Source: a virus (Duplodnaviria; Caudoviricetes). Taken from it: DNA of 64,000 nt. The position numbers and the translations under genes are program-made. The stretch spans positions 61,037 through 125,036 of IMG/VR virus record IMGVR_UViG_3300043432_000237, one strand, 5' to 3'. Below are positions 28,523-49,115 of the stretch, piece after piece. The notes beneath the pieces were generated by a model. It made no database searches. It worked only from the letters and a program-made list of their open reading frames with translations, and was not told the origin of the DNA. Numbering within the stretch: the first letter of the stretch is position 1; every line of letters begins with the position of its first letter.

Positions 28523-28822
28523 TCAAGTCGTCTCTTGTCGAATGGCGTTCCTCCGATAGCCGCCGGGCAGTGGCCAGTAGCCGAAGCTCGTAGGGTCCCC
28601 GGGGCGTGGCCCGAAAAAGGTACCGGCGGGCGCGTAGTCGTTCAGGGCAGCAGAGAGCCCCAGGAAGGCCACCATGGCGGTCTCCGTCGACCCCAGGCTG
28701 CGCTCGGCCACCACCAGCATCCGCTCGGCGTCGGCGTCCTCCGGGTGAGCAATGCTCGCCAGCTCCTCGGCGAAGCGCGTCACCGCCTCGGGCACGTAGT
28801 CGGTACGGATCAGCTCAGTCAT
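28523..28822 (-). CDS. hypothetical phage protein
   Basis: ALNDYAPAGTFFG.RPGD...FGYW. Confidence 0.75.
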   Translation of the reverse strand: MTELIRTDYVPEAVTRFAEELASIAHPEDADAERMLVVAERSLGSTETAMVAFLGLSAALNDYAPAGTFFGPRPGDPTSFGYWPLPGGYRRNAIRQETT

Positions 28823-30834
28823 GACCGCTTGATCTTGGTGTCGACGTGATCGAACTCGCCCTCCTGTGCTGCACGCAGGAAGTGATCAGCCAGCGCCTTC
28901 GCCACCAGCTCGCGCGTCGGCTTGTTGAACATCTCGTGCCACTTCATCGAGCACCCGTTCTCCTTGCAGTACGCCTGGGCCGCGGCCTCGACGACGTAGC
29001 CCCAGAGCTTGGGCGCCAAGGCGTGATCGTAGTTGCCCTTGCGGAACTTGCGCAGTTGGTTCACGAGCGCCGAGTTGCCGTGTCCGTGGGAGCTGTGCAT
29101 CGAGAAGCGCGCGTCGTTCTCCAGGTACAGCTCCAGCTCGTCCGCCGCGTGCTGGTCAGCCGTTCCGCCGCGTGCGTTGCTCTCCATCTCGTCGTCGCCA
29201 GCAGCCGCGTAGGCGGCGTTCATGAGTGCGGCGTCCAGGATACCGCTGCCCTCGTTCACGAATTGCTTCAGCTTGCGCTTCAGGAAGTCGTTCACGGCTC
29301 CACCGCGCCTCAGCTGGGCGTGGTCATAGAAGTCTTCCCAGCGGCCGTCCCAGATACCGACGCCTTCTCCGCGCAGCGTCATGAGCACCAGGTAGGGGCC
29401 CATGTTATCCCAGAGATCGTCGGCCGTGGTTCCGCCCTTCGGTGGATGGGTGCGCACCAGCTCGTCCAGCGCGCTGGCGAGGGCGGCGTCGTACTCCTTG
29501 GCGACCCGCAGCACCTCTTCGGTCACCTCGACGTCTTCCGTGCCCAGGTCGCCGCTCTCTGCTTCCATCTCGATCAGCTGATGAAGCAGCTCGACGTCTT
29601 CGGCGAGACCGCCACGGAGCGAGTGATGGTGGTTCGGGCGCAAGCGTGAGCCACCGCGCGCGGTCGGTTCCGTCCCGGCTCCCTTGCACATGGGGCACGC
29701 GGCGCGTTCTCCAAACACCACGCCCTCGCCCTCGCAGTGCCCGCAATCCTTCCTTGGCACCTGCACGCTCACCACCTTCTTCCCCGTGCCACCCGGACTC
29801 CGCACGACCACCTGGTAGGCGCCTTGCCCCGCCGGGATGACCCACTCGGTCTCCACGGGCTCGTAGCCCTGGCGGCGCGCTTCCGCCCACACGCGCTCGT
29901 GCAGCTCGCGGTACTTCTCTGGCGGCGCACCGTTGGGCTCCAAGTCAGTAGGGTCAGGGTGCACCTGATGACTGCGTGTCGCGTGACCCAGTTGTCGGAA
30001 CTGTCCATCGGCGCCGACTCCGAAGATGACGCCCGCGCGAATGCCTCGACGTTGCGCCTCGTAGCGCGCGGCGTCCATCGCCTCGGGCACCGAATCGTAC
30101 CCGCGCGTTGGGCCGATGGTCAGGTGGGTGCCACCTCGCTGCACGAGATCCACGACGTACCTCCCGCGGTGATCGGCATGGATCACGAAGTCGTCTTGGC
30201 TTGCTCCGGTTTCTTGGTAGATGCCTCGGGCGTTCGGGGAATACGGGGACTTCACTCGCGGAACACGTTGGGCCGGGATGCCCTGCGCTCGCAACTTCAC
30301 GAACGCAGCGTCGCAAGCCTGGGCCGTGGGGTAGGACTTGAACGTCGTGTCCGACACTTTCAGGACGCGGCCTTCCTCGACCGCGCGCGCCCAGTCCGTG
30401 CGCTGCTGCCGAGATTCCCTCTTCGAGATGTTCGCCTCGTACTTCGAGCCGTGCGCGTAGTCCTCGAAATAATCGTCCGCTCGGTCCTCGTCTTCGTGCG
30501 GGGACTGCTCGAAAACGGACTGCCAGGAGCGCTCCAGGTCGTGCTCGGTGTCGTACAGGTTGACGTCCACGAACCCCTGGCTGTCCGTGAACACGATGAC
30601 GCCCGCCGCGCTGGTGATCTCGTTTCGGTCCACCGAGTTGAGCCTCGCCACTTCCTCGGGCCAGCTCTCGGCGAACTTGTCCAGGTCGAACGGACCCCGG
30701 AAGAGGTCTGCTCCCGAGCCGTCCTCCCCGAACGAGATCTGACCGTCCGAGAAACCCTCCAACATGATCGCGTGGAACAGCTCACCGGACGCTCCACTTC
30801 TCTCGAACTTCCCCGGACGCTTCTGATAGCTCAT
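28819..30834 (-). CDS. mosaic (polyvalent) protein with PN-delimited modules
   Basis: 671 aa; modules include a DSQGFV domain, a DnaJ-like CxxCxGxG finger and an ELELYLEND domain; linkers YEAN, YSPN, LEPN, LRPN, MESN. Confidence 0.85.
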   Translation of the reverse strand: MSYQKRPGKFERSGASGELFHAIMLEGFSDGQISFGEDGSGADLFRGPFDLDKFAESWPEEVARLNSVDRNEITSAAGVIVFTDSQGFVDVNLYDTEHDLERSWQSVFEQSPHEDEDRADDYFEDYAHGSKYEANISKRESRQQRTDWARAVEEGRVLKVSDTTFKSYPTAQACDAAFVKLRAQGIPAQRVPRVKSPYSPNARGIYQETGASQDDFVIHADHRGRYVVDLVQRGGTHLTIGPTRGYDSVPEAMDAARYEAQRRGIRAGVIFGVGADGQFRQLGHATRSHQVHPDPTDLEPNGAPPEKYRELHERVWAEARRQGYEPVETEWVIPAGQGAYQVVVRSPGGTGKKVVSVQVPRKDCGHCEGEGVVFGERAACPMCKGAGTEPTARGGSRLRPNHHHSLRGGLAEDVELLHQLIEMEAESGDLGTEDVEVTEEVLRVAKEYDAALASALDELVRTHPPKGGTTADDLWDNMGPYLVLMTLRGEGVGIWDGRWEDFYDHAQLRRGGAVNDFLKRKLKQFVNEGSGILDAALMNAAYAAAGDDEMESNARGGTADQHAADELELYLENDARFSMHSSHGHGNSALVNQLRKFRKGNYDHALAPKLWGYVVEAAAQAYCKENGCSMKWHEMFNKPTRELVAKALADHFLRAAQEGEFDHVDTKIKRS

Positions 30835-30896
30835 GTGTTCGGCTCCAGTGGCAGGCTAACGTGGACGCGCGCTGGCAAGCCAGTTTTCGCGCAGGC

Positions 30897-31678: not shown

Positions 31679-31700
31679 GCGCCCAAGCTACCATGCGGCC

Positions 31701-32291: not shown

Positions 32292-32313
32292 GCCTCGGGA
32301 TAGGCTGCTGAGC

Positions 32314-34053: not shown

Positions 34054-35049
34054 TCATGACCGCAGATTCTCGATCAGGGGGAGCGCCTCCAGGATACGCG
34101 AGAACCAGGTGTGGTTGCGAATCACTTCCTGGCGACCCGCACGACCGAGGTAGCGCGCCAGGTCGGGCGAGCCCAGGAGCCGCCGACACGCTGCCACCAG
34201 CTCCGCTTCGTCGCGATACACGTAGCAGTGCTCCGGACCGAACTCCTTCTCCAGACCCGGCACGTAGTGACACACGGTCGGTGTGCCTGATCCCATCGCG
34301 ATCAGCTGGCGGTCGGAGTAGTAGCGCTCGATGTCGTTGAAGTGGTTGACGTTCAGGGCAACCTTGGCGCGGCGCCAGATGTGCACCTGCTCCTTGACCC
34401 CGCACGTCCCGACCACGGGAAAGTTCCCGGGCCACCCGTTGCCCACGATGCCCACGTCCAGACCGGCGCCCTGCAACGCGCGGATGGCCGCCTCGCGCTC
34501 CAGCGTGCCCTTCGGAAACGTGCTGCCGTAGTACGAACCGCAGAACACGATCTCGGGCACTCGAAACGGTGGCTCCCAGTCGTCGGTCGGAAACAAGTCT
34601 TGCTCCCAGTCGACACCGATCTGCAGGTAGGACGCGAGATGGGCGCCGGCTGCTCGAAACAGCTCCACCTGACCCGCAGCACTGGTGAAAGTCAGGTCGG
34701 TTGCGCGGCAGATGCTGCTCAGGTACGGGCTCACGCTCGGGCGGCAGTCCCCGGTCCAGTGCGTGAAGATCGCGTGGGTGCAGCGTCGCCGAGCGTCCTC
34801 GATCGCCTCTGCGCTCAGCACGCCAGTGTCCTGCACCTGCATCCAGACCCAGTCCGGTTGCACTCGGTCGACCTTTTCGACGAACTGGGCACTGATGTGG
34901 TCCGCTCTGATCCCTTCGCGCTGCTTGGCCAGGTAGTCGAACTCGAACACGTTGTCGCGCCCGAACACGCCCTCGAACGCATGCTGCATGCCGCGCTGCG
35001 GGTGGTCGTAGTTGATGGTTGCCAGCAAGATCTTTTTCACGCTTCTCAT
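34054..35049 (-). CDS. CgeB-like glycosyltransferase
   Basis: HWTGD, IVFCGS, AKVALNV..YYSDR..AMGSG, HTWFSR. Confidence 0.85.
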   Translation of the reverse strand: MRSVKKILLATINYDHPQRGMQHAFEGVFGRDNVFEFDYLAKQREGIRADHISAQFVEKVDRVQPDWVWMQVQDTGVLSAEAIEDARRRCTHAIFTHWTGDCRPSVSPYLSSICRATDLTFTSAAGQVELFRAAGAHLASYLQIGVDWEQDLFPTDDWEPPFRVPEIVFCGSYYGSTFPKGTLEREAAIRALQGAGLDVGIVGNGWPGNFPVVGTCGVKEQVHIWRRAKVALNVNHFNDIERYYSDRQLIAMGSGTPTVCHYVPGLEKEFGPEHCYVYRDEAELVAACRRLLGSPDLARYLGRAGRQEVIRNHTWFSRILEALPLIENLRS

Positions 35050-35996
35050 GTGCCTTGCCACTCCTTGCGCGCCTCGAACGCCTCCATGCTCGCGGGCACC
35101 AGGTACTTCGCGATGCAGTGCTTGACCGTGTAGTGCTCCAGCTCGTCGAACCGCACCTCAGCCTGCTCACGCAGCGACTGCAAGCGCTCCGTCTCGCAGA
35201 GGTCCCGCAGCCAGGCCCCTTGGCGCTCCAGCACCTCGACGTCCTCCGACAGCTCGATCCGCTGGTAGTGGTGCGGCTCCAGCGGCCAGCTGTCCGGGTG
35301 GGCCTCCGCGATCAGCCCGGCCGAAGTCGACATGAGCTGCCAGAGCCGCCACTGAGGAAACGTGGCGCCCGCCGTGTGCGCCACATGCAGCGCGACCGCG
35401 GCAGTGTCCAGGCAGCCGATCAGCCGCCGACCGTAAGCTCCCGAAAGGTTGACCAGGTAGTGCCCAATGCGCTCGGACAGCGCGGGCAGGATGGTCTGGC
35501 GCCGGCCCGCCATCGAGCCCCACCAGACCAGCGACTCGAACTTGGGCGTCGACCAGCGCGGTCCGCCCGTGGCCTCGGGGGACCAGCCGAGCGGGTAGAG
35601 GGCAGCGCGCAAGCCCCAGCTGCGGAAGCGCTCCACCATGCCGGGCGTGTAGCCCAGCACCAGGTCGTGATCCTGTGCTGCAGCGCGGAAGCCCTCCCAG
35701 TGGGCGACGTGCGAGTCCAGCATGGTCGGCGCCCAGGCCTCGATCGCGTAGAGCGCGGTGCAGTGCCGACGCGACTCGGGCGGACCGATGCGCAGGTTCT
35801 GGTTGGTCCAGTCCACGTAGAAGGTCCGCTCGTCGGCGCGCTCGCTCAGCTCGACTTGATAACGCTCCGGTGTCACCACGCTATGGCACGAGTCCAGCGT
35901 CTGCAGCGTCTCGCGCAGCTCGAACAACGGACCCCACACCGCTGGCACCACGTGCCGGTAGTGCAGATCACTGATGCGGTGCAGCGGCCGTTTCAT
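35046..35996 (-). CDS. CgeB-like glycosyltransferase (divergent)
   Basis: PLGW, WWGS..GRR..L, ALHV...WRL, HYT. Confidence 0.65.
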   Translation of the reverse strand: MKRPLHRISDLHYRHVVPAVWGPLFELRETLQTLDSCHSVVTPERYQVELSERADERTFYVDWTNQNLRIGPPESRRHCTALYAIEAWAPTMLDSHVAHWEGFRAAAQDHDLVLGYTPGMVERFRSWGLRAALYPLGWSPEATGGPRWSTPKFESLVWWGSMAGRRQTILPALSERIGHYLVNLSGAYGRRLIGCLDTAAVALHVAHTAGATFPQWRLWQLMSTSAGLIAEAHPDSWPLEPHHYQRIELSEDVEVLERQGAWLRDLCETERLQSLREQAEVRFDELEHYTVKHCIAKYLVPASMEAFEARKEWQGT

Positions 35997-36230
35997 GGCA
36001 GTGCTCGACCGGAGCAACCGTAGACCTGCACCTCAGCATCCCGAAACGACTCGGACACCAGCAACTCAGAACCGCCCCGCAAATGCAGTAGCGCGCGAGA
36101 CTGATTGGACCGAGTGTCGTAAGCCACGGAGACAGCCACGATGTCGGCGCGCGCCACCGTAACCAGAGGCCCGAAAGTGTTCGGCGGGATGAACCTAGAA
36201 AAGCTCAGCGGTCGGGTCTTCTCGTCCATC
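35993..36230 (-). CDS. small hypothetical protein
   Basis: MDEKTRPL start; ..GGSELLVSESF. Confidence 0.5.
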
Positions 36231-36234
36231 ACTC

Positions 36235-36969
36235 TTAGCTCTCTCGGACGACGCCGGTCTGCTCGCGCGTGGCCTGCATGTTGTGGCCGTGCATGCGCTT
36301 GTAGCCCACCACGCGATCGATGCCGTGCGCCGGACCGTACGCGCGCGTGAGCGCCTGAAAGAAGCGCCCGTCGCTGGCGTAGTCGCCGTGATCGGTCTCC
36401 TCCCAGCTGGGCACGCGCTCGAAGCACGCGCGACGATGCGCGACCTGGTTGTGGTCCAGCACGCAGTACGGGTCGTGCACCGGTCCGGCAAAGTAGCGCT
36501 GCTCACCCGTTGGCTGCCGGTCACGACTGACATAGACCAGGCGGCCGTAGCCCACCATGACCTCCGGACGCGCGAACAGCTCGTCGAACGCCGCAAACGC
36601 GCCTGCGTCGTAGTAATCGTCGTCGGCCAGGTAGTGCACAATGTCGCCCTGCGCGTGCCGTAGCACCGCGTTGATGCCCTTCACTGCGCGCGTGGCCGCG
36701 TCGCCGCGCCAGGTCGGACGGTCCGGATTCTCGACAACGAGTGCCGAGCCTGCCAGAAAGTTCAGCAGTAGCGCCGGGTGGAAGCGGGTGGTGTAAACCG
36801 TCGGAACGCCCGCCAGTGCCTGCTGAATCGCCGTCAGCGTCGGCTCGTCCGAGGCGTCGTCGGTGATGATGAGCTGCCACTCGCCGTTGGTCTGTGCGCG
36901 CACCGACGCGATGGCCTCGCTCACCAGCTTCGGTCGGTTGTAGCTGCCCAGGATGACCGTGTGCTTCAC
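36235..36969 (-). CDS. GT2 glycosyltransferase (SpsA-like)
   Basis: SYNRP, QT...WQLIITDDAS, YLADDDYY, LDHNQVAHRR. Confidence 0.9.
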   Translation of the reverse strand: MKHTVILGSYNRPKLVSEAIASVRAQTNGEWQLIITDDASDEPTLTAIQQALAGVPTVYTTRFHPALLLNFLAGSALVVENPDRPTWRGDAATRAVKGINAVLRHAQGDIVHYLADDDYYDAGAFAAFDELFARPEVMVGYGRLVYVSRDRQPTGEQRYFAGPVHDPYCVLDHNQVAHRRACFERVPSWEETDHGDYASDGRFFQALTRAYGPAHGIDRVVGYKRMHGHNMQATREQTGVVRES

Positions 36970-37226
36970 GGCCAGATCCTGCCGCGCACTTCACACTTCA
37001 CACCTCGACACGTCTCGGTGATCCGCTGAGCGGCACGCAACGCGGACAAGCGCGTCGCGTACTCGAACTCCAGCTCCCGACTCAGTGCCGTCGCTCCACT
37101 GAACGCCGTGCCGCGACCCACCGCTTCGCGGCGCGCGACGCGCTCGATCTTCTCATCGTCGAGACACGTGGACTTGTACCGCGCGATGACGCGAAATGGC
37201 TTCCGCTTGGTCTTCACAGTTTTCAT
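36966..37226 (-). CDS. small basic hypothetical protein
   Basis: MKTVKTKRK start coupled to both neighbours. Confidence 0.55.
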   Translation of the reverse strand: MKTVKTKRKPFRVIARYKSTCLDDEKIERVARREAVGRGTAFSGATALSRELEFEYATRLSALRAAQRITETCRGVKCEVRGRIWP

Positions 37227-39055
37227 GGCTCGCGCTTGCTCCCGGTGTTGCCTTGCGTCGCGATCAGGTTGTAGCCGTGGTCCCGGTGAAAGGCGACGAC
37301 CTGATCCATCGGGTGAATAGGCCCGAAGCCCTCCTCCACCAGCTTGCGGAAGAACACTCCGTCCGAGTCGTAGTTGATACCGGCCTCCGGCCACATGGTC
37401 ACCTTGCGCAAGCAGCTGCGCCGGTGCACGACCGAGGTGTGATCGAGCTGACCACACGGATACTCGACCGGGCCGCCCGGGAAGAGATCTCGACCCTGCA
37501 GACTGCCGTCCGCGAACACCCAGCTCATCCGGCCGTACGCCATGTGCTGTTCGGGATGCGCCTCGAACCAGTCACGAAACAGCGTCAGACGATCGCGCGG
37601 GTAGAAGTCGTCGTCCGGCAGGTAGTGGATCAGCTCCCCACGCGCCAGCGGAAGCGCCCGGTTGATGCTGCGCACCGCTCGCACCTGCGCGTCGGGCCGA
37701 GGCCCCGTCGGACCCGTGCCGCGCAGCAGGATGCACTTGTACGTCGTGGTGTCGATTTCTGCCTGGATGGCTTCCAGCGTTTCAGGATCAGAGCCGTCAT
37801 CGGTGATGATCAGCTCCCAGTCGATGTCAGTCTGGTCGCGCACCGACCGGATAGCTTCGCGTACCAGCTTGGGCCGGTTGTAGCTGCCCAGGATGACGGT
37901 GTGTGTGACTGGCAAAACACCCTGGTCGATGTGCAGCAACGTGGTATGCGGACCCCGGATCGGCTCGATGAGCGCATCCGGGCTCATCTCGCGCACCAGC
38001 TGGTAGATCTCGCGCTCCGCGTAGACGTGATGCAAGAAGCGCGACGACTCGAACTGCTCGGTGGTGATCTGCTCCTGCTCTCCTAGCCATAGCGACACGA
38101 ACAGCTGACCGTGTGCGCCCGTGCGGGCAAGCAGGCGCTGCAGTGCAGTGCGCGCCTCGGGCAGGTGCCCCAGTACCTCGCAGCAGATCACCACGTCGCT
38201 GCTGCCGCCGTAAAACATCGAGGGCGTGCCGCCCAACAGATCTTCGTACCCAAACTTGAGCCGCGGGGCGTCGTTCGTGCGCACCGCCCAGGCCAGCATG
38301 CGCCGCGACACGTCTACCCCAATGTACTTCAGCTCCTGCTGCGCAGTCTGCCACGCTGCCACCAGCGCCTGCGCGACTTCGCCGGTGCCGCACCCGACTT
38401 CGAGCACCGCACTGTGCAGAGCATCTACCTGACGCACGCGGTTGCCGATTTCCATTGCCAACCAGGCGCGGTGCGCTTGCTCGTCCGCGCTCTGCCACTG
38501 CTGGCGGATCTGCTCCACCACCTCTCCGTTGTCCCAGCGCTCCCACGCGCGCTCCGGACCCGCCTGCGCCTCCATGTAGAACAGGTCATCTTGCGGCAGA
38601 CCCACATGGACAAACCCCGACCTCAAGTAGGTCTCGACCGCCGCCGAGTTGCCTCGTTTCACGTTCAGGCACAACTTGCGCAGCTGCAGGCTGCTGAACG
38701 CCCAGTCCACCGCTCCCAGCGTCAGGATCATGCCGTAGTTGCGCCCGAGCCCGCGCTTCTCACCGATCATGAGCCGCCCGAACTCCGCCGCCTTCTGCGC
38801 CCAGTCGACGTTGTAGATCGCGACCTGACCCACGGGACCTTCCTCGTCGCTCACCACGAACACGAAGTCGTTGTCCCGGTACTGGTACCGATCGAACCAC
38901 TCCTGGTGCTCCGCTTCGGTGATCTCGTCGGAGTGCAACAGCTGCTCTCGGACGCGCTGCTGATTGCGCCAGCCGCGCGTGACCGGCAGGTCGGCTGCTG
39001 ACAGTGGGCGGAAGGTCAGTCCGCCGCAGCGGAACGTGGGCAAAGCTCGTTTCAT
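37223..39055 (-). CDS. GNAT acetyltransferase-SAM methyltransferase-GT2 triple fusion
   Basis: WRNQ..VR...EH..WF, AEFGRLMIG, GRNYG (PseH-like GNAT); VLEVGCGTG, GVDVS..ML (MTase); SYNRP, TDDGS, YLPDDD (GT2). Confidence 0.9.
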   Translation of the reverse strand: MKRALPTFRCGGLTFRPLSAADLPVTRGWRNQQRVREQLLHSDEITEAEHQEWFDRYQYRDNDFVFVVSDEEGPVGQVAIYNVDWAQKAAEFGRLMIGEKRGLGRNYGMILTLGAVDWAFSSLQLRKLCLNVKRGNSAAVETYLRSGFVHVGLPQDDLFYMEAQAGPERAWERWDNGEVVEQIRQQWQSADEQAHRAWLAMEIGNRVRQVDALHSAVLEVGCGTGEVAQALVAAWQTAQQELKYIGVDVSRRMLAWAVRTNDAPRLKFGYEDLLGGTPSMFYGGSSDVVICCEVLGHLPEARTALQRLLARTGAHGQLFVSLWLGEQEQITTEQFESSRFLHHVYAEREIYQLVREMSPDALIEPIRGPHTTLLHIDQGVLPVTHTVILGSYNRPKLVREAIRSVRDQTDIDWELIITDDGSDPETLEAIQAEIDTTTYKCILLRGTGPTGPRPDAQVRAVRSINRALPLARGELIHYLPDDDFYPRDRLTLFRDWFEAHPEQHMAYGRMSWVFADGSLQGRDLFPGGPVEYPCGQLDHTSVVHRRSCLRKVTMWPEAGINYDSDGVFFRKLVEEGFGPIHPMDQVVAFHRDHGYNLIATQGNTGSKREP

Positions 39056-39591: not shown

Positions 39592-39599
39592 GTCCGCTG

Positions 39600-40772
39600 T
39601 CACGCGCGGGCTCCCAGTTCCTGCAGCCCGTCCAGCACTGCCGCGACCACGCGATCCACGTCGACCCTGCGCAGCCGCAGATGCAGCGGCAGCGACAGCA
39701 GCTCGGACGCAGCCTGGTTTGCCACGGGCGTCGGCCACTGGGCGCCGTAGAGCGGGTAGTAGTCTTGGTGGCTGGCGTAGTGCACGCCCGGGTAGATCTG
39801 CTGCTGATTCAGGTGGACCAGCACCTCGTCTCGGCGCTCTGGCACTCGGATCTGGTAGAGGTGGCGCGAGGGCACGCAGCCCGGTGTGACCTTGACGCTG
39901 TAAGCCGAGAGCATTTCCTCGTAGCGCTCCGCCAGCGCGCGCCGGTAGGCGTTGTCGACGTCCAGGTAGCGCAGCCCCACCAGCGCGAGCGCAGCATTCA
40001 AAGCGTTGCCGTGGTACTTGAAACCCAGGTGCTCGACGCCGTACTTCCACTTGTAGCGAGCATCAGGATCGAGCGTGCGCGCGTAGGTGTTGCGATCGAT
40101 CCCCATCCAGCTCAGCTTGCGCGCCAGCTCGTGCGCCTTCGGCGTGCGCATGCACAGCATGCCCCCGTCCGCCGCGGGCAAATTCTTGACGGCCTGGAAG
40201 CTGAAGCACATCGCGTCGGCGGTGGATCCCAGTCCGGCGCCAACGTGCCGCGTAGGCGCGCCATCCGTTGGGAAGCGCGTGCCGGCCATGTGGGCCGCGT
40301 CGATGATCAGATCCAGTCCGCGGTCCTGACAGAGCTGCTCGATGGTTGCCAGCTGACCGACGTTGCCGCCCAGCCCCACGAACATCACCGCCCGCGTCTC
40401 CGAAGTGATGCGCGCCACCACCGACTCGGGGTCCAAGCAGAGCGACTCGTCCACGTCCGCGAAGACCGGACGCAGACCGGCGTAGCGGATAGCGTGATTG
40501 GTCGACACGAAGGTGAGCGGGCTGGTAATGACCTCAGCGCGGCGGCGCCAGTTGTGCTGGATCTTGAGCACCTCCAGTGCCAGGTGCAGCGCAGACGTGC
40601 AGCTGTTCGTGAACAGCGCGTGCGGCAGCCCCGTGTACTCCCTCCAGGCTGCCTCCAAACGCTCGGTCAGCTCACCCGGTGCGGTCCAGCCGGCTTCGAG
40701 ACAGGGGCGCAGCTCGGCCAAGCACTCGTCGGTCCGATAGACCGGCACGAACAACTGAATGGGCTCTTTCAT
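39600..40772 (-). CDS. DegT/DnrJ/EryC1/StrS sugar aminotransferase
   Basis: NSCTSALHLA, TFVST, DAAH, FSFQAVKNL..DGG, GFKY, LSLPLH. Confidence 0.95.
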   Translation of the reverse strand: MKEPIQLFVPVYRTDECLAELRPCLEAGWTAPGELTERLEAAWREYTGLPHALFTNSCTSALHLALEVLKIQHNWRRRAEVITSPLTFVSTNHAIRYAGLRPVFADVDESLCLDPESVVARITSETRAVMFVGLGGNVGQLATIEQLCQDRGLDLIIDAAHMAGTRFPTDGAPTRHVGAGLGSTADAMCFSFQAVKNLPAADGGMLCMRTPKAHELARKLSWMGIDRNTYARTLDPDARYKWKYGVEHLGFKYHGNALNAALALVGLRYLDVDNAYRRALAERYEEMLSAYSVKVTPGCVPSRHLYQIRVPERRDEVLVHLNQQQIYPGVHYASHQDYYPLYGAQWPTPVANQAASELLSLPLHLRLRRVDVDRVVAAVLDGLQELGARA

Positions 40773-41599
40773 GCTCTCACCTCGCGCGCCGCAGCGATGA
40801 CCTCTCCTTGGAACGTCCTGTCGACGCAGAGCGCACGGTACAGGTTCTCGCCCAGCACGTCGCAGCGGTAGTCGTCGCGCACCAGGTCCCGCACCACGCT
40901 CGGCAGCTCGTCTGCCGTCGCGTCCACGTAGTCCATGCCGGGCACCAGCGGGTACGGGTCACGCAGGTGCTCGCTCACCAGCGGCAAGCGATAAGCCGCT
41001 GTCAGGGCAATCCTGATCGGCTCGCCGATCTCGACCGGCGTCTGGTGCGTGTTGACCATCACGCGACTCTCGCGCAACACCTGATCCCGCGTCTCGCCTG
41101 GCCCGGCGCAGGGAGCCTCGCGCAGACCCTGCTGGCGCAGGCGCGCCAGGATCTCGACGCGGCGCCCATGCACGTAGCTCATGTGCGCGTAGTCGAACTG
41201 CTTGCCCACCGGCTGCTCGTGCAGCCGCAGAAGCGGGTGGCTGCCCAGCGTGAGGTACTGCTGCCGAGTGTCCAGCGAGCGGTAGTGCCGATCGGAGACC
41301 CAGACCCGATCGAACACGCTCAGCGCATCGGAGACGACCTGGGTCGGCGTGGGCATGTTCGGGGCGTCGGGGCGCTCCAGGTTCCACCACACGACCTTCG
41401 CGGCGGGTGGACCCACGTGGTGCTCGCGCTTCTGACGCAGTGCCTCGACCTCGCCGTTCACGGGCGTGGTCACGTACACCGCATCGGCCGCCAGGTTGAT
41501 CTCGTCCACGTAGCAGGTCGGAAAGCCTGACAGCTCGACCAGCCGCCAGAAGTCCGCGTAGGAGTCGTAGCTCCAGCGCGTGCGAGCAAACACGATCAT
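40769..41599 (-). CDS. putative glycosyltransferase
   Basis: YDSYADFWRLV, WNLE, RDQVL..SRVMVN.H, EPIR, LPLVSE. Confidence 0.7.
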   Translation of the reverse strand: MIVFARTRWSYDSYADFWRLVELSGFPTCYVDEINLAADAVYVTTPVNGEVEALRQKREHHVGPPAAKVVWWNLERPDAPNMPTPTQVVSDALSVFDRVWVSDRHYRSLDTRQQYLTLGSHPLLRLHEQPVGKQFDYAHMSYVHGRRVEILARLRQQGLREAPCAGPGETRDQVLRESRVMVNTHQTPVEIGEPIRIALTAAYRLPLVSEHLRDPYPLVPGMDYVDATADELPSVVRDLVRDDYRCDVLGENLYRALCVDRTFQGEVIAAAREVRA

Positions 41600-42522
41600 T
41601 GGGTGGCTCCGACGCGGTACTCCCGAATGTTGGTCACGCACTCGACCGCGTACCACGGATGCTCCGTGTTCACGACCTTCGGGTACTGCTGATTGTTGCG
41701 GCGCTGAAAGTACACCTGGCGATTCCGGTTCAGGCCCTCGCCCCACTGCACCGAGGTCCGATTGCGATGCGCCTCGGGCTCGGCCGAGTGATCCTGGTGC
41801 AGCCCCTGGATCTCGGTGGCGTACACCGGTGCCCAGCCCGCCAGCGCCACCCGATCGCGGAAGTCGTCGTCCTCGGCGGCGACGCCTTCCAGGTAGACGA
41901 AGTCCACGCCGCGGATGGCCTCGATGGCTGCCTTGGGCAAGAACGACGTGTACCAGTACAGCTCCTGCGGACCGAAGTGTTGAAGCCCACCCCTGGCGTT
42001 GACGGCCTGCAGGAAGCCCTCCCAGCCGACGCTGGTCCAGTCGCGTTCGTGGCTGGACAACCAGCGGTTGGTCTCGCCGTCGCCTAGCCAGGTCAGCCCG
42101 AACAGGTAGCTCTTCTCTTTCTTGGCGATCAGGCGCTCGCGGGCGTGCGCGAAATTCTCGGGGGCGTGCAAGATCTCCGGGTGGCACAACGCGATCACCT
42201 CGCCCCGCGCCAGCGCCGTGCCGGCGTTGATGGTCAGCGCGGGCGTGTGAAACCAGTCCTCGCGCTCACCGGGCTTCCAAGTCGGGTTGCGCTTCTTCCA
42301 CAGCGGGTGCAGCTTGTGGTCCAGCTCGACGTGACGCAGGTTGATCTTGCCGATCAGGTGCTCGTACGTCTTGCTCAAGTCCTCCGTGCTGCAGTCGTCG
42401 ATCAGCACGATCTCCCACTGCTCGGGCGGCAGCGTCTGCCAGAGATACCCAGCCAGCGCGCGGCCGAACAGCTGGCCGCGGTTGTGGATGGACAGGACCG
42501 CAGAGATCTCAACCTGGGGCAT
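41596..42522 (-). CDS. GT2 glycosyltransferase
   Basis: HNR..L, EIVLIDDCSTE, IN.G...ARGE, GVD..Y..G.AAEDDDF. Confidence 0.88.
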   Translation of the reverse strand: MPQVEISAVLSIHNRGQLFGRALAGYLWQTLPPEQWEIVLIDDCSTEDLSKTYEHLIGKINLRHVELDHKLHPLWKKRNPTWKPGEREDWFHTPALTINAGTALARGEVIALCHPEILHAPENFAHARERLIAKKEKSYLFGLTWLGDGETNRWLSSHERDWTSVGWEGFLQAVNARGGLQHFGPQELYWYTSFLPKAAIEAIRGVDFVYLEGVAAEDDDFRDRVALAGWAPVYATEIQGLHQDHSAEPEAHRNRTSVQWGEGLNRNRQVYFQRRNNQQYPKVVNTEHPWYAVECVTNIREYRVGATQ

Positions 42523-43520
42523 CACATCCCCAACCAGTACGGGTGCTCGACGCTCCAGCGGATCGTGTCGGCCAAGCTCACCTCGAACGTCTTGGCGTAC
42601 TCGAACCCCATGTCGCGCAGCTTGTCCCCGTTCAGGGCGTAGCGCAGATCGTGACCCGGGCGCGCGGAGTGAAAGTCCACCAGCTCCCCGTGCAGGCGCT
42701 TGTCCAGCGTCTGAGCAATGAACTGGGCCAGTTCCAGGTTGTCCACCTCGCGCTCGCCCACGATGTTGTACTTCTCGCCGGCCGTGCCCTTGTCGAGCAA
42801 AAACAGCACCGCAGCGGCGACGTTGCGCGCGTGGATGTAGTAGCGCGAGCCGGGCTTGGTGCAGGTCTGGTCGGCGTGGATGGTGACCTTCTCCCCCTGC
42901 AGCACCTTCCGGATCGTGTTCGGGATGAACTTTTCGTGATGCTGCCGCTGCCCGAACACGTTCATGGTGTGCGTGATCAGCACGGGCAGTCGGTACGTGT
43001 TGTGGAAGGCGAGCGCCAGCTCCTCGCCGCCGGCCTTGGAGGCCGCGTACGGGTTGCCCGAGCGGTAGCGATCCCACTCCGCGTAGTGCACGCCCGTCGG
43101 CGCGGGCCCGAAGACCTCGTCGGTCGAGAAGTAGACGACCTTGCCCAGCGTGCCGTAGCGCGACTGCAGGCGCGTCGCGTACTGCAAGAGGTTGCAGGTG
43201 CCGACCACGTTGTCCATCACGAAGTCCATGGGGTTGGTGATGGAGCGATCGACGTGTGTGCTGGCCGCCAGGTGGATGATGTGGTCCACCTCACCGATCG
43301 CGTCCTGCACGTACTCGTTCAGCTCAGACTTCAGGTCGTGCCAGACGAACTGCACGCGCGACTTGTTCGCTTCCCAGGGACCAATGTCCGTTAGCCGCAT
43401 CTGGGTGGAGGTCGTGTCCAACCGATCCAATCCGACGAGGTCCCAGTCGGTCTGCTTGAGAATGGCCTCTCCGACGTGGTGCCCAATGAATCCGCTCAAC
43501 CCCGTGACGAGTACTCGCAT
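42522..43520 (-). CDS. rfbB: NDP-glucose 4,6-dehydratase (RmlB/RfbB-like)
   Basis: TGLSGFIG, HLAASTHVDRSI, FSTDEVFG, NPYAASK, EKFIP, RPGHDLRYA. Confidence 0.93.
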   Translation of the reverse strand: MRVLVTGLSGFIGHHVGEAILKQTDWDLVGLDRLDTTSTQMRLTDIGPWEANKSRVQFVWHDLKSELNEYVQDAIGEVDHIIHLAASTHVDRSITNPMDFVMDNVVGTCNLLQYATRLQSRYGTLGKVVYFSTDEVFGPAPTGVHYAEWDRYRSGNPYAASKAGGEELALAFHNTYRLPVLITHTMNVFGQRQHHEKFIPNTIRKVLQGEKVTIHADQTCTKPGSRYYIHARNVAAAVLFLLDKGTAGEKYNIVGEREVDNLELAQFIAQTLDKRLHGELVDFHSARPGHDLRYALNGDKLRDMGFEYAKTFEVSLADTIRWSVEHPYWLGM

Positions 43521-43925: not shown

Positions 43926-44597
43926 TCAGTTCGTACGCCAGTAGTAGAAACCGCTCGGCGTTTCGCTGGACCGCCCGTCGTAGCTGGACAGGTAGTGCTC
44001 CGGACCGTCGCTGCTGACGGCTTCCTCGGCGGCGGCGTCCTCGTCGATACCGGCAATCTCGATCGCCTTCTTGACGGCGTCTTCCTTGCCGTAGATCTCC
44101 TCCAGGTAGTCCAGCGGGTACTTCAGGTCGCGCCTGGTCTTCTCTTCGGCCAACGCCTCGATCAGACCCTCGCGATCTTCCAGCACAAGCTCCTCGTCAT
44201 CGTCCTCGCCCAAGTACGGATCCTCGACCAGACTGGAGCGCTGCAGCTCCTTGATCAGCTCGTCATCGTCCATGTCGTTGAAGTCGTCGTAGTTCATGTC
44301 CTGCAGATCGGACTCCAGCTCGTCCCGCAGCTTCTTCTCGTCGATGTGCGACTCGATGAACGACGGCTCGAACATCCCTGGCTCCTCTTCCAGGTCTTGC
44401 TTGACACTGGCCACCGCCAGCTCGTGCATCGCGTCGTGGTCCTCGACGACCTGCCACTCCTTCGATCCGGACTTCACCTCGAAGACGGTGGTGTCGAACA
44501 GCGTGGTTTCGGTGATGTCCAGGTCGTCCTCGTCGTAGCCCAGCTCCTTGGCCATCTCACGCAGCACGCCCTCTTCGTCGAACGCATTCTTTGCCAT
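43926..44597 (-). CDS. highly acidic phage protein
   Basis: D/E-rich; ID.D...EEAVSSDG.EHYLSSYDG; starts MAKN. Confidence 0.85.
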   Translation of the reverse strand: MAKNAFDEEGVLREMAKELGYDEDDLDITETTLFDTTVFEVKSGSKEWQVVEDHDAMHELAVASVKQDLEEEPGMFEPSFIESHIDEKKLRDELESDLQDMNYDDFNDMDDDELIKELQRSSLVEDPYLGEDDDEELVLEDREGLIEALAEEKTRRDLKYPLDYLEEIYGKEDAVKKAIEIAGIDEDAAAEEAVSSDGPEHYLSSYDGRSSETPSGFYYWRTN

Positions 44598-44652: not shown

Positions 44653-46470
44653 TCAGATCACTCGCTCGCCGGTGCCCGCGCGGTAGCGGCGCACGATCTC
44701 GAAGCTCGCCGCAGAGGGAGTGACGCCGCGGCTGACCACGCGATCGTGCTCGCCATTCGTGGCTGCGATGCGCGCGTAGGTCTTGGCTCCCTGCAGGTCG
44801 TGCGGACCGTGCGGGCCCTCACTGCTCATCGGCTCACCGTGGCGGTCGAGCACCCAGACGTAGTAGCCACCATTGGGAGTGTGTTCGCTCTGCGCAAGGT
44901 ACTCGTTCGCTGCGTTGATGGCTCCCCAACCGGCCGCCGTCAATTCGACCGATGCGCCGTCAGGGCCTTGGAAAAAGCGTACCCAGCCCGGGTACTCCAC
45001 GTCGCGCCTATCGGACGGACGGACTCTGTTCGGGTATGACTTCGCAAAGTCTACGAACCCGCGGAGTCGAGCGATTTCTTGTCGCGTGAACGCGGCGAGT
45101 GGCGCCACCCCGTTCAGTCGAGCCAGCTTGACCACCGCCAGACACTGGAAACGAGTGGCCCCGCCAGGCACCGGGAGCGCGTCAGCAATCTCTCGTGCAC
45201 CATTTCTGGCCATGCTTCCTGGTACGGCGTTCGGGCGCACTTTCTCCCCTGCGTAGTACTGGTCGTCTTCGGCCAGGTGATCCATCGCGATTTCCTGGGC
45301 CAGCGCCCAGTCGTCGGTGTGCTCCAGCTCGTGCTGGGTGCCGATCTCCAGCTGGACTGGATCGAAGTCCTCCGGTCGCATGCCGGCGGCACGGCCACCC
45401 GGTAGCCTTTCCTGAAAGGGCGAGTAGGCGTCGTTCGGCTCGAAGTTGCTTTGCGGCTCGCGCTGCACACCGCGCTCGCGCCGGTCGCGCATCCCGTCGC
45501 GATAGCCGTCGAGGAAGGCTGCACTTGCCACCGCCAACAGCTCGCGCTCTTTCTTTTCTGTTAGCGGCCTCTTCGGCAAGAGCGCAGACTTGTATCCCAG
45601 GTAGCGTTGCCAGGATTCGCTTGAGGCCTGCCTGGCCACGGTGCCCTCCAGCAACTGGGTGTCTCGGTGCGCGTCACCAAGCACGATGCGAGGCGGATCA
45701 ACCAGACCCTCTCCGCGATAAGAGCGTTCGGCCGGAGCACCTGTCTCGTCGAAAACCTGGAACTCCAGGATCGCAAAGTAGGGTTCTCCGCGCTTGTCCA
45801 CCAGCCGGTTGCCCAGCTCGTCCACGATCTCCTGTGACTGAATGAGCCAGCCCTTGTCGATGAAGACTCGCGCGTTGGGCGTCAGACTCTGTTGTCTCGC
45901 GTTCGGAGTGTGCCCCCCGCGCAACGCCTCGGCCTTGGCGATGACCTCTTCCAGGCGCTCGGCTAGCTCGTCGAGCGTGGCAGCCTGCACAGTCGAGGGC
46001 GAGAAAATTCCCTTCCACTCGCGCTTGGCCGGACTGATGCGCAAGCGATAGTCGCCCGCGCCACCAGTGAGCTGCGCGCCGCGCTCTCCGAACACGTCCT
46101 TCGCTCGATACAGGAGCTTGTGCTTCTGGTCCGCAGCCGACGGGCCACGCGGAGCTGGTGCCTCCGCCTCGTTGCGCACGATCCCGTGCTGGTAGATCAC
46201 GAACAGTGGCCGGTCGTGCAGAAACGGGTCTGACGCCGTCAGCGAGCGCTTGCCTACCAGCTGCCCACGAATGCGCACCGCCAAGCGCTCGGCTTCCGCT
46301 TCGGTGGCCACCGGCACCTCGACCGCCCAGCTGCGCGACTTGCGGAAGTAGTACAGCATCATGCCGGGCGGAGACAGCAGGCGCAGCCCGGCGGGCTTCA
46401 GGTACCGTTCTGCCGAAAACAGCTCGTGATACTCGCCCAGCTGGGCGGCGAGTTCGTGAAGAAGGCTCAT
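44653..46470 (-). CDS. mosaic protein with PN-delimited modules, including DUF5661-like module (about 45241..45432)
   Basis: LPGGRA...DFDPVQLEIG..HELEHT.D..LA.EIAMDHLAED..YY flanked by FEPN and VRPN. Confidence 0.85.
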   Translation of the reverse strand: MSLLHELAAQLGEYHELFSAERYLKPAGLRLLSPPGMMLYYFRKSRSWAVEVPVATEAEAERLAVRIRGQLVGKRSLTASDPFLHDRPLFVIYQHGIVRNEAEAPAPRGPSAADQKHKLLYRAKDVFGERGAQLTGGAGDYRLRISPAKREWKGIFSPSTVQAATLDELAERLEEVIAKAEALRGGHTPNARQQSLTPNARVFIDKGWLIQSQEIVDELGNRLVDKRGEPYFAILEFQVFDETGAPAERSYRGEGLVDPPRIVLGDAHRDTQLLEGTVARQASSESWQRYLGYKSALLPKRPLTEKKERELLAVASAAFLDGYRDGMRDRRERGVQREPQSNFEPNDAYSPFQERLPGGRAAGMRPEDFDPVQLEIGTQHELEHTDDWALAQEIAMDHLAEDDQYYAGEKVRPNAVPGSMARNGAREIADALPVPGGATRFQCLAVVKLARLNGVAPLAAFTRQEIARLRGFVDFAKSYPNRVRPSDRRDVEYPGWVRFFQGPDGASVELTAAGWGAINAANEYLAQSEHTPNGGYYVWVLDRHGEPMSSEGPHGPHDLQGAKTYARIAATNGEHDRVVSRGVTPSAASFEIVRRYRAGTGERVI

Positions 46471-49115
46471 GGCGTCCCCGCCGTGAGCGCCGTGAGCGCT
46501 CGTACCACCGCCGACCCCACTCGCGTCGTGGGCTCCCAGGTCACCACCGTCACCACGCTCTCGCCTGAGGAAGCGTCCCGCTCTTTGATTGCTTCCAGTG
46601 ACTCAAACGCCGTCGGCAAGTCGGCTACGCTTCCATCGTCCCAGGTCACTCTCCAAGAATCTGCCAGCTCGGTTACTGTGACCCTGCGCCTCGTCACTTT
46701 TGGTTTTGCTACCGCGTTCGGAATGTGCTTGACCGCTCCGCGCGGAAGCGGCTTCCTGGCGTTCGGGGTATGCTCCTCAGCCGCGCGCAAGCGATTTTCC
46801 TGCTCCGCGCGCTCGATCTCCCCCTGGTAGTTCCAGCGCGCGTAGGCGACTGCGCGCGCGTAGTCTCCGAGGCGCGCGTATTCGTAAGCGTGAGCGCGCA
46901 GCCATTCGTCCGGGTCGCGGTGCGCGAAGGCCGCCCGGATCACCTCGTTCAGCTCGCCGAGGTTTTCGTCCGCGTTCAAAGCGCGCGGATCCAGCCGAAA
47001 CATGTTGCCGCTATCGTAATTCACGACCTCGTAGCGCAGAGTGTTTGCGTCGGGGTCACGCAGAGTCACTCCTTTCAGGTTTCCGTAGTACACGACGTCG
47101 TCGTTGTAGACGTACTCGAACGGAGCGCCGCCCGTGAGATGGGAGTAAGGCTCTCCGCCGGGCTCTGGCGGCACGAAGCCGACGTCCCGCGCTTGCCCGC
47201 CACGCGGGCGCTCGACTCGCCCCGGAACTGACACCTTGCGCGGGCGTGCAGCCGCACGCTCATCCTTGAGCTTCTTCTCCTCGGCTGACACGATGCGCTT
47301 GATGGCGCGCAGCTGCTTTTCTTTGCCTGAGCACTTGGCAAAGTTTTTGGTCACTGCGCTGGCGAATGACTCGTTGTGGTAGGCGACACCGTCCGCCATG
47401 TGCGTGCACTCGTGCACGGCGGCGGCGTAGAGCCACATGAAGTGATCGTTGTCTGACAGCGACCAGATCTCGTCGCTGATACTCGGATCGGCGCGCACGA
47501 ACGGGTTGAGCATCAGCCAGTGGCCGTCGTCCTGTCGGTACTCGGCGTCGCGGTCTTCCGCGATCACGAGACCGACGCCGTACTGCTCCTTGCTGCCCAG
47601 CTGGATGAGCACAAAGCGGCACATCTCGGCCCAGCAGCGCACGAGCCTGCGCACCGCGGCCGTCATGTGCTCCGGGTAGAACTTCTTCGGGACCTTGTAG
47701 CCCTCGACCTCGTTCACCAGGAAGTAGTCCGGCTGCCAGGCCAGCTGGCGGCACGCGGCCTCCATCTGCTGGGCTCCCGAGAACGGCAGGCCCTCCATCA
47801 TGGCGGTGGCCAGCTCGGCGTTGGCCGCTACGCTGACGACCTCCGTGGTCGGTTGCTCGGCAGTGAAGCGGGAGAGAGCCTCGATCAGACTGCCCAGCTG
47901 GTCGGTGCTCAGTTCGCGCGTGCTCTTCTCGCGCGGCTTGCCGAGCGGCTCCATTGCGCCCAGCTGATCGAGCATGACGGCTTCGCGCTCGCGCGAGATG
48001 CCCTGGAACTTCTTGCCGGTGTCGTACTTTTTCTGCACCAGGCCCTTCTCTTTGCGCAGGGCGCTCGACACGTCTGCGCTCAGCTCGCTCAAGTACTGGC
48101 TGATGGCCAGCTTGATCGAGGCGCCGAAGCTGCCGTAGTTGCCCCGGAAGCCGTCACGGTTGCTCGTTAGCACCTCGGTCGAGCGCGCGTAGATTTCCAC
48201 GATCAGCTGGCCAGGGATCTCGGACGGCACCCATTCGGTGAACATCGCCAGCGAAGCCCCGTTGGCCTGGTTGTGGATGCGCACGACCATGCCGCCGTAG
48301 ATCTTCTTTTTCTTATCGTAGAACAGACTGGCGGCGCCCTGCAGATCTCGGATCTTGTCAGCCACCCTGAGATCTGCTTTCACGCGCTCGCCATCGACGA
48401 TGAAACGCACTCCGGGCACCGAGCACTTGCCGATGTAGGCCATCGCGATGGAGGACGAGGTTGCGTTGTCCGACGGCATGACCACCGTCAAGCGCGTCCC
48501 TTGTCTCATGGGAGCCGGGAAGGTCTTGTAGTCGCTACCCGATCCTTTCATCAGCACGTCGCGCGTGTGCATCTCGTAGGAGATCCAGGGCAACACCAGC
48601 AAGCGCTTGGCCTCCCCGAAGCCGCCCGTGGTGGCCGTGCTGCCCTTCTTGCCGGTGCCCTTGAACCTCATGAACACGCCGCGCAGCGTCTCCTTGTCCA
48701 TGCCCGAGCCGTTGTCCTCGCAGGTCACCTCCACGCCGCCGTCGTCGCGCGTCTTGACTGTGCACAGGATCTCGGTGGCGCCTGCGTCGATGCCGTTCTG
48801 GATGGCCTCGCGCCACCAGGCTTCCTTCCAGTTCGAGTAGTCGTCCAGGGCACCCGCGAAGAAGTCGGGGCCCATGATCATGGTGCCGCCCTCGCCCTCA
48901 CCTTCGCTTTGGTTGGGCTGGTAGCCGTCAGCGTCGACCAGGACCGCGAGTTCCTTCTCCCCGTCCAGCAGGTAGCGCTCGCCCAGCAGCTTGGCCTCAC
49001 CCGCCGTCACCAGCGCGCGGAGCTGGCCGTAGGCCGGGTGCAGGGACTTCGCACGGTAGATCCCCGGTGGGATGGCTTCGTTCGGGGCAATGTCGGTCAG
49101 CTCGATGACTCGCAT
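46467..49115 (-). CDS. GHKL ATPase plus zincin (HExxH) mosaic protein
   Basis: REAIQNGIDAGA, EDNGSGM, GGFGEA, GT (GHKL); AVHECTH...YHNESF; PN linkers at both ends. Confidence 0.9.
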   Translation of the reverse strand: MRVIELTDIAPNEAIPPGIYRAKSLHPAYGQLRALVTAGEAKLLGERYLLDGEKELAVLVDADGYQPNQSEGEGEGGTMIMGPDFFAGALDDYSNWKEAWWREAIQNGIDAGATEILCTVKTRDDGGVEVTCEDNGSGMDKETLRGVFMRFKGTGKKGSTATTGGFGEAKRLLVLPWISYEMHTRDVLMKGSGSDYKTFPAPMRQGTRLTVVMPSDNATSSSIAMAYIGKCSVPGVRFIVDGERVKADLRVADKIRDLQGAASLFYDKKKKIYGGMVVRIHNQANGASLAMFTEWVPSEIPGQLIVEIYARSTEVLTSNRDGFRGNYGSFGASIKLAISQYLSELSADVSSALRKEKGLVQKKYDTGKKFQGISREREAVMLDQLGAMEPLGKPREKSTRELSTDQLGSLIEALSRFTAEQPTTEVVSVAANAELATAMMEGLPFSGAQQMEAACRQLAWQPDYFLVNEVEGYKVPKKFYPEHMTAAVRRLVRCWAEMCRFVLIQLGSKEQYGVGLVIAEDRDAEYRQDDGHWLMLNPFVRADPSISDEIWSLSDNDHFMWLYAAAVHECTHMADGVAYHNESFASAVTKNFAKCSGKEKQLRAIKRIVSAEEKKLKDERAAARPRKVSVPGRVERPRGGQARDVGFVPPEPGGEPYSHLTGGAPFEYVYNDDVVYYGNLKGVTLRDPDANTLRYEVVNYDSGNMFRLDPRALNADENLGELNEVIRAAFAHRDPDEWLRAHAYEYARLGDYARAVAYARWNYQGEIERAEQENRLRAAEEHTPNARKPLPRGAVKHIPNAVAKPKVTRRRVTVTELADSWRVTWDDGSVADLPTAFESLEAIKERDASSGESVVTVVTWEPTTRVGSAVVRALTALTAGTP

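Follow-up and report, generated by a model that had tools for sequence, protein, structure and literature searches.

Viral proteases that act on heads or polyproteins have short site codes: L/I-x-E for T4 gp21, S/A/G-x-E for phiKZ gp175 and SPN3US gp245 (PMC10052503), (M/I/L)-x-G-x-G for the adenovirus protease, and A-x-x-Q followed by G for the 3C-like proteases of RNA-virus polyproteins. Short peptides also mark the pre-toxin boundary of polymorphic toxins (VENN in CdiA, (Q/E)LYN in Burkholderia CdiA). Iyer, Burroughs, Anand, de Souza and Aravind (2017, PMC5512222) proposed, in a general way, that the polyvalent proteins of phages and conjugative elements are processed by an embedded metallopeptidase; text searches of their paper revealed neither a linker or cleavage motif nor a GHKL-zincin unit. 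Here we describe three large proteins, P0001, P0002 and P0003, encoded in a 64,000-nucleotide stretch of viral DNA (the window; positions 61,037 to 125,036 of the Caudoviricetes record IMGVR_UViG_3300043432_000237 in IMG/VR). Their modules are joined at seams that carry a short tag ending in asparagine (Asn), often preceded by proline (Pro), and this tag may be a protease site.

Polyvalent proteins comprise two to fifteen unrelated domains. Like them, the three proteins combine many unrelated small domains in one phage polypeptide: at least five modules in P0001, at least four in P0002 and at least three in P0003. They had been described in a first-pass annotation of the window as strings of independent modules, and the modules do occur independently in homologues. 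A further likeness may be a zincin-like HExxH embedded in P0003, whose HECTH (residues 568-572) is invariant in 13 sequences; the putative zincin has no Pfam match, and the families suggested by an Atlas structure search (YgjP, WLM and M48) are leads only, with template modelling (TM) scores of 0.42-0.48. P0001 has no embedded peptidase domain, and the HELEH of the DUF5661 domain in P0002 sits in a two-helix unit. None of the polyvalent hallmark domains (ART, MTase-helicase, ArdC-N, MuF and others) was found in the three proteins by Pfam or PHROGs, nor was a portal or terminase, virion or T4SS context found for their genes. Unlike polyvalent proteins, these carry a defined Asn tag at their seams, and the same tag is present in a structural core protein. 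The earlier statement that no described system is known to use this motif agrees with our search of the full-text literature on DUF5661, Asn-directed phage proteases, phage asparagine lyases and transglutaminase-like phage maturation proteases, in which none was found.

The virus record, of which the window forms the right half, is a complete phage genome of 125,036 bp (G000) that has direct terminal repeats and a G+C content of 66%. Gene calling with a codon model on the 125-kb genome gave 191 genes at a coding density of 95%. The three open reading frames are strongly coding and free of internal stops (P0001, 671 amino acids (aa); P0002, 605 aa; P0003, 882 aa). Searches covering 5.8 billion proteins retrieved 14 homologues of P0001, 25 of P0002 and 44 of P0003, with very different lengths and architectures. 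Four related IMG/VR records (G001 to G004) were compared with this genome, among them G001 (131 kb, 48 genes in common) and G002 (179 kb, 60 genes in common, including a syntenic structural block). Neither a megablast in which 6 kb was compared with phage and plasmid collections nor a tblastn of P0003 against phages gave a match; a search for related loci with P0003 as the sole query also gave none, and succeeded with an alignment as the query.

All 13 Pro-Asn (PN) dipeptides reported in the first-pass annotation were found in the three proteins at the positions given there. Within-protein shuffles predicted 3.0 +/- 1.65, and none of 300 shuffles reached 13. Across the 191-gene proteome, 73 PN were observed against 60.4 +/- 7.3 expected; the reported enrichment therefore holds for the three proteins but not genome-wide, where the simplest statistic proposed for it would fail. 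The longer forms are more specific. Twelve of the 13 PN conform to [FYHLMIVW]-x-P-N (1.0 expected), and eight extend to [FYHLMIVW]-x-P-N-[AG] (0.17 expected), a form that does not occur in the other 188 proteins (0 against 3.5 expected). The peptide [ST]PNAR is present in four copies, all in the three proteins, although the entire proteome would be expected to hold only about 0.07. Copies of the tag are encoded by codons that differ at synonymous positions, and the motif is therefore one of protein, with no DNA repeat; a DNA-level repeat or recombination signal was ruled out on these grounds. An N-glycosylation sequon was ruled out too, as most seams lack Ser or Thr two residues past the Asn. 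Eleven of the 13 PN lie at or beside module borders, as had been claimed, with the borders defined independently from homologue architectures; the exceptions are IAPN at residue 12 of the 882-aa protein and SYPN at residue 481 of the 605-aa protein.

Homologues from other samples gave a more general picture of the tag. In these relatives the key residue is the Asn, with a hydrophobic residue or His three positions before it, and the preference for Pro is limited to this lineage. The consensus is [Met/His/Tyr/Phe/Leu]-x-x-Asn, followed usually by Ala, Gly or Ser. Of the x-Pro-Asn linker originally proposed, the Asn and the upstream hydrophobic residue or His were thus retained, whereas the Pro was not: relatives use YEGN, MHKN, MESN, FRAN and HWKN. 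In 27 of 32 unique seams M/H/Y/F/L stands three positions ahead of the Asn, and in 22 of the 32 A/G/S follows it. An Asn occurs at -5..+2 of 33 of the 39 internal module starts in homologues (7.7 expected; five module types, boundaries extrapolated by BLAST). These seam and module counts are not phylogenetically independent. Among homologues, the second to fifth modules of P0001 (M2 to M5) vary in order and neighbours, as does the GGYYVW module at the C-terminus of P0002, and relatives have gained, lost and reordered modules exactly at the motif, as the first reading of the window had anticipated.

Two analyses that are less prone to bias point the same way. In 86 proteins, homology breakpoints were concentrated near hydrophobic-x-x-N (z = 5.6), and when the N was replaced by Q, D, E or S as a control, z was <= 0 (-0.5 for hydrophobic-x-x-E). 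A position-specific scoring matrix trained on 25 seams of P0001 homologues only, with no sequence from this genome, ranked Asn785 of the unrelated P0003 first among the 1,023 Asn of the proteome (score 14.2), Asn553 of P0001 third (10.3) and Asn190 of P0002 fourth (9.4); seven sites scored at least 8 bits, whereas shuffled sequences gave 0.6. The tag recurs in pairs with 5-15 residues between them, an arrangement also known from spacer peptides (HTPN..LTPN, HTPN..HIPN, VRPN..MARN, EYESN..LRRN, HRQN..LKRN). The P0001-, P0002- and P0003-like proteins of G001 and G002 bear the same seams: in G001, for instance, the linker EYESN-KKLPLRRN-A is repeated, and G002 has SWKPN-A and WEPN-A. AlphaFold models also place the seams in what are predicted to be flexible linkers: Asn201, Asn401 and Asn553 of P0001 have a predicted local distance difference test (pLDDT) below 50 and Asn301 adjoins such a segment, and all six PN of P0002 fall in low-confidence segments. 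The two full-length models (P0001 and P0002) had no Foldseek match in the PDB at E<=0.001.

P0001 (28819..30834; minus strand, as are all seams described below) was divided into modules on the basis of its translation, homologues and AlphaFold model: M1 (residues 1-110), a poorly conserved stretch, M2 (202-299), M3 (302-400), M4 (402-554) and M5 (555-671). The model has a mean pLDDT of 72, and its confident domains (6-110, 205-295, 306-360, 410-545 and 560-660) match the modules, which occur in homologues in varying subsets, orders and company. M3 contains a CxxCxGxG zinc-finger-like part, with weak Pfam matches to DnaJ and Anti-TRAP zinc fingers at 361-395. The seam before M2 is YSPN followed by ARGIY (Asn201; 30232..30243), within the segment 188-203 of pLDDT<50; homologues have YEGN, MHKN or MRKN before M2, and M2 opens two proteins as M-AKGIY and MQKN-ARGIY. 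At the M2/M3 border, LEPN is followed by GAPPE (Asn301; 29932..29943) and adjoins the low-confidence segment 303-306; the corresponding seams in homologues are LEPN-AAPP, YEGN-GAPPE and MQSN-AGPPQ. At the M3/M4 border, LRPN precedes HHHSL (Asn401; 29632..29643; pLDDT<50 segment 376-405), with HTPN-HHHSL, YRSN-THHSL and LKRN-SSLG in homologues. The M4/M5 border has a variant without Pro, MESN followed by ARGG (Asn553; 29176..29187; pLDDT<50 segment 548-556), correctly placed by the first-pass annotation before the last module, and represented in homologues by MESN-ARGG, FRAN-ARRGG and HWKN-GRRE. One upstream module ending in YEGN precedes M2 in one protein and M3 in another, and the tag therefore belongs to the seam and not to a single module. 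Around the looser variant YEAN, which had also been listed with the motif, no alignment was obtained.

P0002 (44653..46470) is composed of an N-terminal module (11-183), a middle stretch, DUF5661 (347-410), what may be a winged-helix part and the C-terminal GGYYVW module (534-605). Its start overlaps the stop of the adjacent upstream gene, P0003, by 4 nt, and P0003-like and P0002-like parts are fused in the relatives P0029, P0034 and P0042 and in a 1172-aa protein of G002. After the N-terminal module there is a double seam, HTPN-ARQQSLTPN-ARV (Asn190 and Asn199; 45874..45912), in a low-confidence linker, and the homology of P0002 to P0006 stops at residue 177, ahead of it. The DUF5661 mini-domain (HELEH ... 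DHLAED; 45241..45432; Pfam PF18905, E 1.2e-6) is a two-helix unit with pLDDT 93-97. It is bracketed as first described, with FEPN (45433-45444) before it and VRPN (45229-40) after it, the latter followed by MARN (45202-13). In high-GC DUF5661 homologues, an Asn stands directly ahead of D[AS]YSPF and an Asn-ending tag past the domain. The GGYYVW module (pLDDT ~92), together with the HTPN at its border (Asn533), occupies 44656..44883. All 12 homologues counted have an Asn at the start of this module, regardless of the upstream part; the tags are MEWN, MTPN, MAAN, HEPN, QRPN, FRSN and YARN, and one Asn is found just inside the module (ERGN-YWVW). The AlphaFold model of P0002 is confident in two parts only, DUF5661 and the C-terminal module. 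SYPN (Asn481; 45028..45039) is in a low-confidence segment where no homologue defines a border, and the looser variant IVRN, which had been listed with the motif, sits within a module and is not conserved.

DUF5661 itself does not determine the seams. It is present in about 4,000 clusters, mostly without them, and it was ruled out as the determinant: G001 has seams without DUF5661, and low-GC DUF5661 lineages have no seams. A second high-GC DUF5661 lineage (P0007-P0010) has seams of the form FRDN-P and LAAN-P, with the module order swapped between P0007 and P0008. Comparison with this Asn-Pro form suggests that the common core is the Asn together with a hydrophobic residue upstream of it. Domains found alongside DUF5661 in homologues are NUDIX, SprT-like, PF18182 and PF18823; a sequence search with DUF5661 against the PDB gave no match.

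P0003 (46467..49115) carries an N-terminal subdomain (13-66), a unit that combines a GHKL ATPase with an HExxH zincin (~80-765; Pfam HATPase_c match at 102-173) and a C-terminal module (~805-882). As the first-pass annotation stated, the GHKL-zincin unit contains no PN, with none between residues 68 and 785. The border between the N-terminal subdomain and GHKL, defined from homologue architectures, has YQPN followed by QSEG (Asn68; 48912..48923). Asn68 is invariant in 13 aligned homologues, and distant ones have YERN, YKAN, YRAN or VRPN there; some homologues are without the N-terminal subdomain and start at about residue 81. Between the zincin and the C-terminal module there is again a double seam, HTPN-ARKPLPRGAVKHIPN-AV (Asn785 and Asn800; 46716..46772), and close homologues of ~770 aa stop at the equivalent of residue 761-765. 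IAPN (Asn12; 49080..49091) has no seam evidence: it is 12 residues from the N-terminus, and homologue alignments span it. In the four [ST]PNA tags of the three proteins, the following Arg is encoded by a rare codon (AGG, AGA, CGA and CGA; window 46755-46760, 45895-45900, 45868-45873 and 30226-30231); these three codons account for 14% of all Arg codons of the genome, but for 22-27% of those in the genes concerned. Their use at the tags may reflect translational slowing at seams, or mere relaxed codon selection in linkers.

The tag is also found in a protein of the structural operon, rich in Arg and with a hydrophobic, Gly/Ala-rich C-terminal half (genome 44497-46287; 16327-18567 in G002). In this genome it bears MSPN-RRRR, HRRN-RRRS and MFRRN-QGF. 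The basic half of the G002 protein has about 40 Asn, many as HRRN, HRKN or HRPN, which punctuate repeated blocks such as FSAKQRAAALRNL. A hydrophobic-R-R/K-N followed by Q is kept in three of three phages exactly at the junction between the basic and the hydrophobic (membrane) parts. The protein looks like a membrane-tethered genome-condensing protein, and it may be fragmented. Since the tag occurs in the core protein of three phages, one mark serves both the accessory polyproteins and what is presumed to be a core protein of the virion.

We consider it about an even chance that the seam tags are cleavage sites of a virus-encoded Asn-directed protease. Folded modules would be joined by flexible linkers, each with one or two copies of the tag; a virus-encoded endopeptidase would recognise the tag and cut at the Asn, freeing the modules as separate small proteins, and the same enzyme would fragment the Arg-rich genome-associated core protein that bears it. 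The cutting, the exact scissile bond, the enzyme and the packaging into virions are what we infer in whole. Cutting by a virus-encoded protease is favoured by the fixed residue, the upstream hydrophobic preference, the position in linkers, the double sites and the confinement to few proteins. There are two candidates for the enzyme. One is a transglutaminase/papain-fold protein of 177 aa with an intact Cys-His-Asp triad (genome 34754-35287), whose gene heads the structural operon. This protein is found in every one of the five related records, and its copies in G000, G001 and G002 share 56-62% identity. The other is the WLM/YgjP-like zincin within P0003. A host enzyme specific for Asn is a possible alternative source of the cutting.

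Two further peptidase genes were rejected. A papain C1-like gene of this genome has no counterpart in relatives. A sedolisin/subtilase-like gene (Pfam S8, E 6e-11) is found two genes from the P0001 homologue in two relatives (L005 8038-9243, L006 8046-9230); it is absent from this phage, with no S8 match in G000 (the only genome searched for S8), and was therefore ruled out as a common enzyme.

Comparison with known proteases shows the same mixture of likeness and difference. Like the sites of head-maturation proteases, the tag is a short motif with a fixed residue and an upstream hydrophobic one, common to presumed cargo and to core or scaffold proteins, and the Arg-rich protein with its many sites is reminiscent of the DNA-associated adenovirus pVII and mu, a resemblance that is functional only. 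However, the fixed residue here is Asn instead of Glu or Gly, the candidate enzyme is transglutaminase-fold, cutting is proposed from sequence, and searches of G000, G001 and G002 found no S77, S78 (neither at E<=1) or C5 (adenain) peptidase. The sites of 3C-like proteases have the same layout at every polyprotein seam, a carboxamide residue with a small or hydrophobic one three positions upstream and Gly, Ala or Ser after it; here Asn takes the place of Gln, the virus is a double-stranded DNA phage, and no chymotrypsin-like fold was found in the same genomes (Trypsin_2 search negative). Nor did these genomes have a C13 (legumain) or C14 (caspase-like) match. The pre-toxin motifs of polymorphic toxins are likewise short Asn-ending peptides at the exchange point of variable modules, but they mark one boundary per secreted bacterial toxin, with DNA-level recombination at a conserved sequence, whereas each of the present proteins has many seams, with no conservation at the codon level.

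Several observations weigh against cleavage at the seams. None of the peptidase families just named was found, and family searches of G000, G001 and G002 gave no peptidase of established Asn specificity. Proteins ending in Asn are not in excess over expectation. The residue after the Asn is variable, with Pro at some seams (VAAN-P, LLN-P, LVAN-P), and endopeptidases mostly cut poorly before Pro. Some relatives of P0003 (P0035, P0039, P0059, P0060) have multi-module tails without the tag. The three genes sit among glycosylation and accessory genes, outside the structural operon. The seam and module counts share the phylogenetic dependence noted above, and, since half of the P0002 model is of low confidence, its six linker sites (~0.014 by chance) are weak evidence alone.

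If the seams are cut, the protease would have a new specificity, for Asn, and the polyprotein strategy would be new for a double-stranded DNA phage; the module content of such proteins could be read straight from sequence. With the rule [M/H/Y/F/L]-x-x-N, annotators could divide hundreds of unannotated giant phage ORFs into functional units, and the rule would also mark the mature ends of the units for expression and structure work. It ties the accessory polyproteins to the core protein in a group whose virion genes match nothing known, and so provides a handle on virion maturation; a sequence-specific Asn-directed protease would, if real, be a useful reagent. A broader and somewhat doubtful proposal is that an Asn-anchored seam code is general across several uncultivated phage lineages (hydrophobic-x-x-Asn here, basic-x-Asn-Pro elsewhere), with a new Asn-directed protease, possibly transglutaminase-fold, cutting core protein and accessory strings in an adenovirus-like maturation that would use another enzyme and another residue.

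The tag could also be a linker element that is never cut, either a docking motif (for a packaging adaptor, a chaperone, the membrane or DNA) or a hinge or helix cap that insulates modules and is kept on recombination. We consider this rather unlikely. The position in flexible linkers, the basic residues often found beside the Asn (HRRN, LKRN, MRKN), the tolerance of Pro after it, the lack of a protease assignable from family searches and the absence of an excess of proteins ending at Asn are all compatible with it. Yet docking gives no obvious reason for a tag at every seam, for pairs 5-15 residues apart or for the absence of the tag from the remaining 188 proteins. Protease sites typically take the form seen here, one strict residue and a preference for a hydrophobic one three positions before it, and some 40 copies in the Arg-rich core protein of G002 fit fragmentation better than docking. 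If the seams are uncut, the tag would still be a reliable marker of recombination-competent module borders.

Alternatively, cleavage could proceed with no protease, by a reaction like that of asparagine peptide lyases, in which the Asn side chain attacks its own carbonyl, a succinimide forms and the backbone breaks after the Asn. The Asn is the sole invariant residue of the tag, and Pro follows it at some seams here and predominantly in the other DUF5661 lineage; Asn-Pro blocks deamidation and favours backbone cleavage. Known asparagine peptide lyases cut Asn-Pro in reovirus mu1 and in FlhB/YscU; the family has been reviewed (PMC3207474). However, the known lyases require a folded catalytic environment, and the seams are in predicted disordered linkers (pLDDT<50), outside the folded modules. 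The uncatalysed reaction is slow, and the M/H/Y/F preference three residues upstream suggests recognition by a binding pocket. We consider self-cleavage improbable.

Met is the commonest residue three before the Asn (8 of 32 seams), and this raises the possibility that seams are relics of gene boundaries, left where M-x-x-N genes were fused in frame, with some modules maybe produced from internal translation starts. Homologues do start with MQKN-ARGIY and M-AKGIY, P0003 and P0002 are split here and fused in relatives, and one internal ATG, in the P0002-like protein of G002, has GGAGG at 7 nt. That one, however, is the only well-placed Shine-Dalgarno among six internal ATG sites; His, Tyr or Phe, which occupy the position in 17 of 32 seams, cannot be start codons, and under the genetic code no single base change turns a stop codon into Asn. 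The claim that small genes also open with the motif has no statistical support: an N occurs within residues 2-8 in 21 of 83 homologues, against 15.9 expected, which is not a significant enrichment, and protein starts of the form M-x-x-N are not enriched. We regard this origin of the seams as very improbable. Chance or composition, with three proteins chosen post hoc for their many PN, would agree with the lack of genome-wide enrichment and with the value for P0002 alone (p = 5e-4, ~0.09 after correction for 191 proteins), but can practically be dismissed on account of the excess of the extended motif, the recovery of sites by a matrix trained on other genomes and the conservation of the seam Asn in dozens of homologues from other samples.

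The virion type of these phages was also considered, with the structural region at genome 34754-60000, outside the window. The group has genomes of 125-180 kb, with direct terminal repeats in G000 and G002. The large genes of the structural operon had no capsid, portal or terminase family match in Pfam or PHROGs, and by the same databases no terminase, portal, HK97-type capsid, prohead protease or A32-type ATPase was found in G000, G001 and G002; searches with Pox_A32 and Terminase_6N were negative. The phages may be a very divergent or a non-tailed virus lineage. Among the structural proteins, the one that is most conserved (250 aa, with 76-80% identity from phage to phage) gave only weak Atlas leads, to the PRD1 P3/P2 capsid families, with scores of 0.75-0.77.

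The three genes have as neighbours a sugar-modification cluster (aminotransferase, epimerases and several glycosyltransferases), a Tad5-like gene and an integrase. The glycosylation genes (window 34054-43520 and 49171-50052, both on the minus strand; genome 55536-58149) comprise a DegT-type aminotransferase, two NAD-dependent epimerase/dehydratases, several GT2 and GT4 glycosyltransferases and a GNAT-methyltransferase-GT2 fusion of 610 aa, a set that suggests virion or DNA glycosylation. Within the cluster, a 183-aa protein (window 39052-39603, minus strand) has a Pfam match to Tad5, a type I Thoeris inhibitor (E 5.6e-25). Elsewhere in the window, at 23469-24631, there is a cluster of tRNA-Gln(TTG), tRNA-Ile(AAT) and tRNA-Arg(ACG) genes with a transfer-messenger RNA gene, and the related contig L006 has a Pth2-like gene. 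Directly downstream of P0002, a 223-aa protein (window 43926-44597, minus strand) starts with MAKN and has the C-terminal end YWRTN, with a final Asn. Its G002 homologue (47% identical) is located inside the structural block, and it may be a virion protein relocated beside the polyprotein genes.

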